Assembly (NCBI GenBank): GCA_964424375.1
Contig: CAYRIH010000006.1
Location: 1 to 45,352, forward strand
DNA: 45,352 nt
Source of the DNA: an uncultured Candidatus Saccharibacteria bacterium
GTDB lineage: Bacteria > Patescibacteriota > Kazan-3B-28 > UBA10110
Direction of reading: 5' to 3'
Shown: positions 10,101 through 37,545 of the stretch, one piece after another
Layout: every line of letters begins with the position of its first letter
How positions within the stretch are numbered: the first letter of the stretch is position 1
Translations under genes and position numbers: made by a program
The notes under the pieces: generated by a model
Database searches by the model: none
Seen by the model: the letters and a program-made list of their open reading frames with translations, nothing else
Told to the model about the DNA's origin: nothing

Positions 10101-10403
10101 AGTAGTAGTTGATCTGATTTGGAAATTATTTATATATTCTTTGCGGTTTATTTTTTCTGATTTTAAATCTGGGTATATATAGACTGGGACATTGGATGTT
10201 TTTTGCAGTATTTTGGCTAGATTGACCTGCCAACTATCGTTTTTGACAATGTAAATTAATTTTTTCTTATGTTCTTTAGCAGTCTGTGCCAGCAAGAGTA
10301 ATTTTCCTGTATTGTTAAGACCAGTAATATAGGTTTTACCGTTAGAAATATTTTTTTTAAGTAATTTATAAGAAGCCAGAGAACTAAATTTTGTCTCCAA
10401 CAT
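7197..10403 (-). CDS. mfd: Transcription-repair coupling factor (start may be ATG 10403 or TTG 10424)
   Basis: CarD-like GDYVVHTDHGIG; ADVGFGKTEVA; IIDEEQRFG; TATPIPRT; QLRGRIGR; DLQIRGAG; TRCF C-terminus. Confidence 0.95.
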   Translation of the reverse strand: MLETKFSSLASYKLLKKNISNGKTYITGLNNTGKLLLLAQTAKEHKKKLIYIVKNDSWQVNLAKILQKTSNVPVYIYPDLKSEKINRKEYINNFQIRSTTTQALKQNDSGIFIFPINALIEPLTIPTMGINFKIGKNFQPDKTVAWLISMGYERQGKVFQNGEVAMHSGILDIFPLNNAHPYRLKFDDDTIIDINEFDPVSNKIIRQHTVIDVPAIKNEKISSYLLDIIENKPKEFIVIFNQADELFQLLYELYQGGHQQDNGILTTVSKQLDNLSAWHFINIPTTEEGLIRFDFAQAPLFANDLNRLAQEIKKYTKNSWQIIINTNKEEHILPILKEHKINFGRDLTDKVVLTNIGSVEGFMNPSLKKILLTDTEIFSPIIEKSQADSKTPQRRQLAFLSQIVKGDYVVHTDHGIGQLIDIDTMTINNISREYLIIKYAGSDRIYVPVEQIDKLSKYISVDGGKPTLSKLSSQNWKRMVGKIKKESQEFAKDLLDLYAKRALKEGISFDSAGFWEQALSDSFIHQETPDQEQVIQDILNDMEKPKPMDRLLVADVGFGKTEVAIRATFKAVTSGFQVAILVPTTILTEQHLETFTERLSPFGVQVAALSRFRSPVEQKRIVASLKTREVDVVIGTHRLLSKDIRFANLGLIIIDEEQRFGVSHKEKLKLLRSEVDVLSLTATPIPRTLNLALSGIRDISVIETPPINRLPIQTTVAPFNMGSVQDSILNEIKRGGQIYFVHNRVATIASMTNKLEEILPEVRFVYAHGQMPERLLAKIMEDFRNGKYDCLVASTIIENGLDNPNVNTLIIDNAGNFGLSQLHQLRGRIGRGKVQAHAYFYYHAGKLAGKALERLKTIAGHTELGSGYQIALRDLQIRGAGGVLSKKQHGHISAVGLTLYTKLLNRAIEKLKTGYKPQVDTITVDLPISAYLPNRYIDNEAQRIKTYQQLVLIESQNELKEAQSELFEKFGELPKEVINLFDLLKLKLAALETQKITSVITHNIAPSGSKTPEYIINITLTSALKDKNVLKALHNAGVQIIDNTIKLPLTAVGNNWIAGIKKIIKLIK

Positions 10404-10427
10404 CGAAAAGATTGTTTCTACCAACTC

Positions 10428-10456
10428 TTGACCATTAGATTAATATGTGTTATAAT
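10428..10456 (+). promoter_or_regulatory. sigma70 promoter divergent from mfd
   Basis: TTGACC (10428-10433), 17 nt, TATAAT (10451-10456), with an extended -10 TG. Confidence 0.7.
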
Positions 10457-10462
10457 GAAAAG

Positions 10463-10800
10463 AATACCTTAATAATTAAAATGGGTTAACTCCGTATTGG
10501 TTCTATATTCGCAAGACTGTAAGTTGGGAGTAGCTTGCCTAGCAAGCCATTGTCCTACCCTCCTTGGGCAAAGCTTGCGGGCAAGGTTCTCCCTGCTTAT
10601 TCCTGGATACCCCAATCCAACAAGTTCACTTGGGATTTGGCAAAAAAGCCTTTTGGCTCGGTATCTATGTAATCTTGGGGAGAAAGGGGTTAGAGGGGGC
10701 AATTAGTTTTTTAGCTCTGATAGCAACATTTCAATCCTACCAGAAAATACTTCGATGTAAATAGCTAGAGTGCCGATATGCCCCCTTTAGCTTACCTAGT
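10463..10800 (+). ncRNA. Candidate large structured noncoding RNA of unknown family
   Basis: GC-enriched region with no credible ORF; about 11 stems paired by eye; G-U pairs favour the + strand; consensus promoter upstream. Ends are approximate. Confidence 0.5.
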
Positions 10801-10809
10801 TGTAATGTT

Positions 10810-11322
10810 CTATAAAAATTTTTCTTTAATTAGTTGTATCGCTTGTGGTATGGCTTTTTTAATTTGGGATAATTCTTGATGAGTAAATTTAGAAGTTACA
10901 TATTCATCTGGCTCTGATATGTGTGAACGTCCAATCCCAATTTTAATTCTAGCTATTTTGTTAGTTTTGAGATGGTTTATTATTGATTGCATGCCTTTGT
11001 GTCCTCCACTGCTCCCAGCCTCCCGGTAGCGAAGTTTGCCGAGCTCCATATCAATGTCGTCGGAGATCACAAGAATATTGGTCGGGGCAACGTTATGCTT
11101 TTTGGCGATAGCGAGCAATGGTATACCGGAGTTATTCATAAATGTTTGAGGCTTGAGGAGCTCAACCGTATCGGTTTTGCTAAAGACAACTTTACGAGCT
11201 TTATTTTCCTTAAACTTGATACCTAAATCTTTTACTAGACGATCGATTACCATCAAACCCACATTATGGCGGCTGTGCTCATATTTTTTTCCTGGATTTC
11301 CTAATCCAACTATTAGTTTCAC
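10810..11322 (-). CDS. pth: Peptidyl-tRNA hydrolase
   Basis: LIVGLGNPG, RHNVG, KPQTFMNNSG, SSGGHKG and RIKIGIG motifs. Confidence 0.95.
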   Translation of the reverse strand: MKLIVGLGNPGKKYEHSRHNVGLMVIDRLVKDLGIKFKENKARKVVFSKTDTVELLKPQTFMNNSGIPLLAIAKKHNVAPTNILVISDDIDMELGKLRYREAGSSGGHKGMQSIINHLKTNKIARIKIGIGRSHISEPDEYVTSKFTHQELSQIKKAIPQAIQLIKEKFL

Positions 11323-21033: not shown

Positions 21034-21108
21034 GGCCCGTTCGTCTAACGGTTAGGACGCGAGCTTCTCAAGCTCGAAACAGGGGTTCGATTCCCCTACG
21101 GGCTACCA
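21034..21108 (+). tRNA. tRNA-Glu(CTC)
   Basis: Acceptor GGCCCGT/ACGGGCT; anticodon arm CGAGC-TT CTC AA-GCTCG; GGTTCGA T-loop; encoded CCA. Confidence 0.97.
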
Positions 21109-37471: not shown

Positions 37472-37545
37472 TGGCTGGGGTGGCAGGATTCGAACCTACG
37501 ATCACGGGACCAGAACCCGTTGCCTTACCACTTGGCTACACCCCA
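37472..37545 (-). tRNA. tRNA-Gln(CTG)
   Basis: TGGGGTGTAGCCAAGTGGTAAGGCA; anticodon arm ACGGG-TT CTG GT-CCCGT; GGTTCGAATCC; encoded CCA. Confidence 0.97.

Follow-up and report, generated by a model that had tools for sequence, protein, structure and literature searches.

The analysis concerned a stretch of 45,352 nucleotides (referred to as the window) from an uncultured Candidatus Saccharibacteria bacterium (contig CAYRIH010000006.1 of assembly GCA_964424375.1, forward strand), and in it the intergenic gap of 385 nt between the genes mfd and pth. Positions 10428-10800 of the window were found to hold an RNA gene on the + strand. It is almost certain that this gene encodes a genuine, conserved and structured non-coding RNA (ncRNA) of no known family, and covariance-model searches suggest that the family is widespread in Patescibacteria (the candidate phyla radiation, CPR), a phylum of small-genome bacteria. 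The fuller statement, that this uncatalogued structured ncRNA pairs in trans with Shine-Dalgarno (SD) sites and acts as a conformational switch, is offered as a tentative reading whose probability falls somewhat short of even. The source genome comprised 654 kb on 31 contigs and was 93.75% complete. An earlier reading of the letters alone (the sequence-only reading) had proposed an undescribed multi-branched ncRNA of ~330 nt at this place, to be checked against Rfam, against shuffled folds and by covariation among homologues.

BLASTN with the region produced matches in 14 of 61 related genomes, its own included, and the relatives carried the match between mfd and pth in 13/13 cases. A covariance model of the trimmed core without the terminator (R1; 168 positions, 43 pairs) was built from 13 core sequences, the truncated copy of G006 being placed outside the seed. 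The order of the source genome is at the same time its whole class (the identical 26 genomes), and R1 showed a single + strand copy in 24 of them with 51-156 bits, and no match in G009 (91% complete) and G019 (85% complete). At the window, R1 scored 146.5 bits on the + strand against 25.4 bits on the - strand, and its second matches were weaker - strand echoes of the same locus. The RNA gene is a genuine one, present once and on the + strand. pth adjoined the RNA in 24/24 class loci, and mfd was recovered by tblastn in 23 of the 24, the exception being cut by a contig end. With stricter filters, R1 matched 13 genomes in an even sample of 151 from the phylum, six of them outside the class. It also matched 19 of the 28 genomes of a second order (the order of G108), where pth was convergent with the RNA in 19/19 loci (16 directly adjacent, 3 at 0.5-1.1 kb).

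Folding of the + strand gave -115.9 kcal/mol (z -4.15) and 0/100 shuffles were as good, so the comparison with shuffled folds came out in favour of a structured RNA; the - strand gave -97.6 kcal/mol (z -2.19; 2/100 shuffles as good). G-U pairs accounted for about 86 of 1025 paired cells in a tally of the model-fitted alignment described below. They would be A-C mismatches on the - strand, and the pairing thus fits the + strand only, as had been claimed from the G-U pairs of this one sequence. The GC content was 0.47-0.51 at 10500-10699 and 0.26-0.35 in the flanks, which bears out the description of a GC-enriched region. The gap contains four open reading frames (ORFs) of 45-77 amino acids, every one TTG-initiated, and tblastn in relatives gave equally partial matches for all four frames on both strands. 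This indicates conservation of the nucleotides with no single reading frame conserved, and a small protein-coding gene was rejected on this ground, in agreement with the earlier statement that the region holds no credible gene.

The features of the RNA and its flanks, as predicted from the sequence and the alignments, are as follows.

10428-10456 (+): RNA promoter, with -35 box TTGACC (10428-10433), 17-nt spacer, TGn (10448-10450) and -10 box TATAAT (10451-10456)
10463-10518 (+): variable 5' leader of 56 nt, with nothing similar in relatives or in the rest of the genome
10519-10603 (+): P1, a long hairpin with few interruptions, in which 10521-10555 pair with 10566-10598
10552-10555 with 10566-10569 (+): apical stem of P1, in which all 4 apical pairs covary
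10556-10565 (+): apical loop of P1, UACCCUCCUU, with a CCCUCC core kept across the family
10587-10593 (+): UUCUCCC 'switch' tract, with 5' GGGAG (10526-10530) or 3' GGGAGAA (10678-10684) as partner
10605-10666 (+): three-way junction domain, stem 10605-10611/10660-10666, both-side changes in 6/6 stem pairs
10612-10640 (+): P2a hairpin, both-side changes in 6/7 pairs
10641-10647 (+): A-rich joiner between P2a and P2b
10648-10657 (+): P2b, GCC (10648-10650) with GGC (10655-10657) around a UUUU loop, both-side changes in 2/3 pairs
10677-10684 (+): 3' segment GGGGAGAA, which supplies the 3' side of the long-range helix P3
10686-10794 (+): terminal hairpin, stem 10687-10701/10779-10793, both-side changes in 6/7 outer stem pairs
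10702-10778 (+): insert of 77 nt in the terminal hairpin, unique to the source genome
7197-10424 (-): mfd, flanking gene from the ORF list, with its start codon 4 nt from the RNA's -35 box
10810-11322 (-): pth, flanking gene from the ORF list, convergent with the RNA

Covariation supported the fold in three alignments. Of the 41 pairs that RNAalifold gave for a plain MAFFT alignment of 13 sequences, 25 were compensatory. The alignment fitted to the model (26 sequences), which by its making favours the structure, had 91.6% of 1025 cells paired against 35-51% in slid controls, and both-side changes were seen in 36 of 43 pairs, a result that 0/500 shuffles reached. An independent MAFFT alignment of 19 second-order sequences was 93.9-97.7% paired against 29-48% when slid. 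It is pairing, and not a reading frame, that the homologues conserve in these alignments. The 23-pair helix of P1 (lower and main stem) contained both-side changes in 18 pairs, and a second model restricted to P1 (R2; 26 sequences from both groups) matched 10519-10602 at 69.4 bits.

The alignments showed a conserved predicted order of P1 hairpin, three-way junction, GGGAGA tract and terminal hairpin, and the junction nucleotides were conserved as well. The conserved core is estimated at about 200 nt, with the leader and the 77-nt insert being lineage-specific, so the proposed size of ~330 nt holds for the gene in this genome and not for the part that is conserved. The leaders of homologues measured anywhere between about 4 and about 230 nt. 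No second copy of the insert turned up, whether in the source genome or in its relatives, and its reading as a repeat or mobile element was rejected for that reason. Several stems paired by eye in the sequence-only reading coincide with covarying helices, namely 10522-30/10589-98 with the base of P1, 10605-11/10660-66 with the junction stem, 10614-37 with P2a, and 10688-701/10779-92 with the terminal hairpin. Others were not borne out: the small hairpins 10533-47, 10550-71 and 10574-85 give way to the single long hairpin 10521-10598 kept by relatives, and the hairpin 10641-55 to the covarying GCC/GGC pairing of P2b. The outermost stem 10512-21/10668-77 has its 5' half in the leader, which is absent or unrelated in relatives, and the inner stems 10709-16/10763-70 and 10726-30/10754-58 lie in the insert of the source genome only. 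In relatives, the terminal hairpin is short, terminator-like and shared with the convergent pth, and the RNA gene is accordingly predicted to end at this shared hairpin. The scan called no canonical terminator within the window; one was called in the L058 homologue.

Two helices compete for the 'switch' tract. The tract is invariant and could pair with the 5' GGGAG as the lower part of P1, or with the 3' GGGAGAA as P3, a predicted pairing that would close the junction domain. Within the class, both helices were about equally well paired (P3 84.5%, lower P1 about 83% by tally). For the second order, RNAalifold picked P3 on the unfitted alignment; P3 there was 97.4% and 94.7% paired with three covarying pairs, and lower P1 was 80.9% paired with two covarying pairs. 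Reading of the alignments revealed matched changes in both partners in three lineages: in G002 the tract has C for U and both partners have G for A; in G174 the tract has U for C, and A replaces G in both GUUG segments; in G173, G085 and G171 the tract has A for C and both partners carry U. Such changes point to two selected, mutually exclusive conformations. On the alignments, both alternative pairings are kept by compensatory change, and we infer from this that the RNA may actually switch conformation. Two exclusive helices under selection, both 81-97% paired, are also what a riboswitch-like element would display. No Rfam aptamer model matched the RNA, and the neighbouring genes imply no ligand. 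With its two pairings, the RNA is a candidate for a naturally occurring switch that does not work in cis as riboswitches usually do.

Searches with Rfam 15 (4227 models) at gathering threshold returned only two tRNA genes in the window, away from the RNA, at 21034-21105 (+) and 37475-37545 (-). At E<=10, positions 10350-10900 produced only three matches to microRNA models, MIR169 (24.7 bits against a cut-off of 80), mir-588 (15.3 against 70) and mir-7918 (13.7 against 80), which are chance matches. Nothing relevant was found in a scan of six distant homologues, and in the region and these homologues no similarity to ribozyme or riboswitch models was found. The RNase P RNA (RF00010) and tmRNA (RF00023) were rejected as identities, the genome having its own copies at C9:17193-17685 (176.6 bits) and C10:8768-9144 (150.4 bits) and the region having no match to either. 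This agrees with the earlier remark that hallmarks of RNase P, SRP (signal recognition particle) and tmRNA are missing. The 6S RNA (RF00013) was rejected because the region's architecture differs and a 6S-like RNA lies at C5:45016-45159 (-). That locus is likely a 6S RNA: it aligns over its full length, folds as a rod with a bubble (z -4.59) and scores 43.6 bits, just short of the cut-off of 46.4. The same model found nothing in five other genomes, a negative of little weight since it detects only 5 of 14 control genomes. An SRP RNA was also rejected, since no Ffh or FtsY was found to bind it and no GNAR-tetraloop helix 8 was visible in the region. No description of the mfd–pth RNA was found in the portion of the literature consulted, with supplements outside the search.

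The promoter of the RNA scored 11/12 plus an extended -10 in the promoter scan, as near to consensus as had been claimed, and from its position transcription is predicted to start near 10463. The layout TTGAC-N18-TAYAAT with TGn, on the same strand as the RNA, was present in 14/14 aligned homologue copies and in 9 of 10 additional class members open to examination. The scan also called an RNA promoter at homologous loci, including L058. The source genome contained 23 TTGAC-N17-19-TAYAAT sites, many of them ahead of genes, which indicates that the RNA carries the organism's usual strong promoter type. The promoter thus appears to be a strong sigma-70-type promoter that is the RNA's own. With no Rfam 15 family, a single strand-specific copy, a promoter of its own and covariation in two orders, the proposal of an undescribed ncRNA stands. 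On the opposite strand, a weak promoter-like sequence was noted at 10761-10734 (-) inside the genome-specific insert (TTTACA, 16 nt, TAGGAT, with TG; 9/12). This might be a promoter for mfd, since the start codon of that gene otherwise directly adjoins the promoter of the RNA.

Across the phylum, R2 matched 27 of the 151 sampled genomes. Among the 12 of these matches that R1 and the searches of the two orders had not given, 8 had pth in the 3-kb locus, and most carried a GCCCUCCUUUAAG-type loop. As a negative control, 80 pth neighbourhoods across bacteria (3 labelled Patescibacteria, no class members) were searched, and R1 matched 0/80 and R2 1/80, weakly. This one R2 match, at L106:2141-2251 (-), with 22.7 bits (E 0.0033), a CCCCUCCU loop and a convergent pth, lies on a contig labelled 'uncultured Gammaproteobacteria'; it may belong to the family, the metagenome-assembled genome (MAG) being either mislabelled or unrelated.

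The two halves of the RNA were lost separately in two genera of the class. In several genus g2 copies (L014 and L042 in G006, L047 in G010, L048 in G008 and L046 in G012), only the leader, P1 and its loop remain, with a U-run behind them, and the three-way junction and the GGGAG tract are lost; these P1-only members point to P1 as a functional core. In genus g8 (5 genomes; L008, L013, L011, L040 and L041), P1 was shortened and had no CCCUCC loop, with the junction, a GGGGAG tract and the terminator kept. The CCCUCC loop was also lost or altered in G025 and G018. The deletions in g2 and g8 indicate that the two halves are separable and that neither is indispensable everywhere. In the leaders of L007 and L010 (G015 and G013), about 230 nt were inserted between promoter and P1; this palindrome-rich insert (e.g. 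GTCATTCC...GGAATGAC) looks like a small repeat element.

The apical loop of P1 displays CCCUCCUU and resembles the 3' end of the organism's own 16S rRNA, which is ACACCUCCUUUCU, also read as CACCUCCUUUCU, and ends ...GGAUGGAACACCUCCUUUCU (C2 near position 105). The second-order loop has the sequence AUCACCCUCCUUU and exceeds the canonical 16S end by one C. The CCCUCC loop was kept across orders in the alignments, and in every lineage having the motif it stood in the loop and never in a helix. In the source genome, AAGGAGG(G/U) was located 4-7 nt ahead of the start codon of 8 ORFs of at least 50 amino acids. Compared with these sequences, the P1 loop appears to be a copy of the anti-SD and the complement of strong SD sites. 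The RNA would act in trans as an abundant RNA, with the exposed CCCUCC of the P1 loop complementary to AAGGAGGG, the genome's strong SD form. By binding to the ribosome-binding sites of mRNAs, the loop would rival the 16S anti-SD of the 30S subunit and lower translation initiation. The junction domain, together with the alternative of lower P1 and P3, would toggle the RNA between conformations and so set its activity or stability. An own promoter, a terminator-like hairpin and an unpaired conserved motif complementary to ribosome-binding sites are the features of a trans-acting, SD-pairing small RNA (sRNA). The SD-pairing mechanism, considered by itself, ranks as the likeliest of the mechanisms weighed, yet is held with more doubt than confidence.

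Several points weigh against this reading. The 26-sequence alignment was fitted to the model, and the counts without that bias are those based on MAFFT. Target prediction by loop complementarity in the source genome gave generic SD sites and no specific target, and a purely trans-acting role leaves the tight linkage to pth unexplained. The loss of CCCUCC in genus g8, with the rest kept, indicates that the loop is not the sole functional element. Among the R2 matches, the weakest (27-34 bits) may include false positives; L179 has no loop motif and may be false, and L185 has no pth.

The same likeness to the 16S tail could serve a protein. As a decoy, the P1 loop would mimic the single-stranded 16S tail and titrate or recruit a protein that reads it, such as a 30S maturation factor (Era, RbfA, KsgA), bS1, bS21 or a nuclease that cuts the anti-SD, with the junction adding affinity or regulation. 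The KH domain of Era binds that 16S 3' stretch, and the second-order loop comes near the canonical 16S end. A strong promoter would suit a stoichiometric sponge, and an elaborate conserved junction is more typical of RNAs that bind proteins or ligands than of simple base-pairing sRNAs. However, the genes found next to the RNA (mfd, dprA, rplK and dnaX) include no conserved one for an RNA-binding protein, and the class loop differs from the own 16S tail, AACACCUCCUUU, outside the CCUCCUU core. The decoy is considered unlikely, both as a mechanism and for any of the named candidates.

The linkage to pth would be explained by cis-antisense control, in which transcription of the RNA, or its duplex with a read-through mRNA, controls the downstream gene or pth. 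The RNA lies antisense between co-oriented genes, with pth or rplK upstream and mfd or dprA downstream. pth is adjacent and convergent throughout the class and second-order loci (24/24 and 19/19) and in 8/12 further loci, and the antisense layout is kept with other partners in L057 (rplK-RNA-dprA) and L058 (pth-RNA-dprA). The closeness of the -35 box to the mfd start codon (4 nt) also fits. Such control does not need a conserved secondary structure, though, and leaves the 36/43 covarying pairs, the invariant loop and the three-way junction unexplained. The downstream gene varies by lineage while the RNA motifs persist, and in G071 and G118 the neighbour is dnaX, divergent from the RNA, with no pth found within the 3.2-kb locus. 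Cis-antisense control was therefore regarded as rather improbable.

A comparably low probability was given to another structured role, such as that of a ribozyme, of a ligand sensor that does not pair with SD sites or of a ribonucleoprotein scaffold, with the tracts being merely G-rich and C-rich helix strands. The pairing of GGGAGA with UCUCCC in P3, by which at least one 'SD-like' tract is structural, and the conserved junction nucleotides speak for it. Against it, CCCUCC is always in a loop where present, and ribozyme and riboswitch models show no similarity. SD pairing and sensing could also be combined in a free-standing CPR sensor-effector RNA, in which the P3-closed three-way junction senses a metabolite or protein and the UUCUCCC toggle switches the anti-SD mimic hairpin on or off. 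This is quite unlikely as a full account. If true, it would mean global control of translation initiation or 30S maturation in regulator-poor cells, and a new housekeeping RNA class specific to a major, largely uncultured bacterial radiation.

A very divergent housekeeping RNA (SRP, 6S, RNase P, tmRNA), the other option of the sequence-only reading, or a small protein gene is highly improbable: the SRP RNA models RF00169 and RF01854 matched 0/26 class genomes each, leaving one housekeeping RNA unaccounted for, but the SRP proteins Ffh and FtsY are missing too, RNase P RNA, tmRNA and a 6S-like RNA were located elsewhere, and no reading frame is conserved.

The missing SRP components are a finding of their own. 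PF00448, the SRP54-type GTPase domain of Ffh and FtsY, was above cut-off in 0/26 class genomes, in none of the 151 phylum-sample genomes and in none of 10 further genomes. Of three named Patescibacteria MAGs, two had no PF00448 match above cut-off, and the third exceeded it solely through summed P-loop-level matches at profile positions 10-39 of 196. In the source genome, the only one searched with it, PF02978 (the Ffh M domain) had no match, and no DTAGR motif was present in its six frames. tblastn of E. coli Ffh gave no match there (best E 0.42; controls RpsP 1e-13 and TrmD 1e-48). As far as it was sampled, the phylum seems to lack the SRP pathway altogether, and no statement of its absence in these bacteria was found in the parts of the literature covered. 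E. coli GrpE likewise gave no tblastn match in the source genome (best E 1.9), which is weak evidence; GrpE diverges fast.

Other near-consensus promoters followed by GC-rich sequence that is not ORF-like were observed at C2 near 29974 (-), C12 near 5323 (-), C10 near 14265 (+) and window position 2301 (+), and the loci behind them may be further RNA genes.

A large part of bacterial diversity belongs to Patescibacteria/CPR, and within the literature searched no conserved ncRNA beyond the universal ones was found reported for them. With strong covariation, a near-consensus promoter, a single copy in most genomes of two orders, a presence in about one-sixth of the phylum sample and an anti-SD-like loop, the mfd–pth RNA offers a testable entry to RNA regulation in very small genomes. 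If the family reaches cultivated, genetically tractable Saccharibacteria, its function would be directly testable.

Among known systems, sRNAs of the RsaE/RoxS type in Firmicutes carry C-rich loops complementary to G-rich SD sequences. The mfd–pth RNA shares with them a gene that stands alone and has a promoter and terminator of its own, and an unpaired, SD-complementary C-rich motif on a stable hairpin. It differs in being 2-3 times larger, in having one CCCUCC loop in place of several UCCC motifs, in adding a covarying three-way junction, bistable pairing and linkage to pth, and in its phylum, and no sRNA model of Rfam matches it. With the 16S rRNA 3' tail of its own genome, the P1 loop shares CCUCCUU, a match that extends in the second order to AUCAC-CCUCCUUU; the motif is however a hairpin loop in a small RNA and not a free 3' end, and with its extra C the best complement is GGAGGG. 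Like 6S RNA, it is a stable structured RNA from a strong promoter, but it has no closing stem, central bubble and terminal stem design. SreA and EutX/Rli55 are trans-acting RNAs derived from or controlled by riboswitches. A similar arrangement may exist here, with a possible sensor (the P3-closed three-way junction) coupled by exclusive helices to an effector part, although no aptamer family matches and no downstream gene is controlled in cis. The orphan large structured ncRNAs raiA, OLE, ROOL, GOLLD and HEARO were likewise found through conservation and covariation, are lineage-restricted and had no known function at discovery; the Rfam members among them do not match the mfd–pth RNA, whose core is smaller (about 200 nt) and whose phylum is another. 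By analogy, the mfd–pth RNA would work most like the C-rich-loop sRNAs, yet belongs to no known family.

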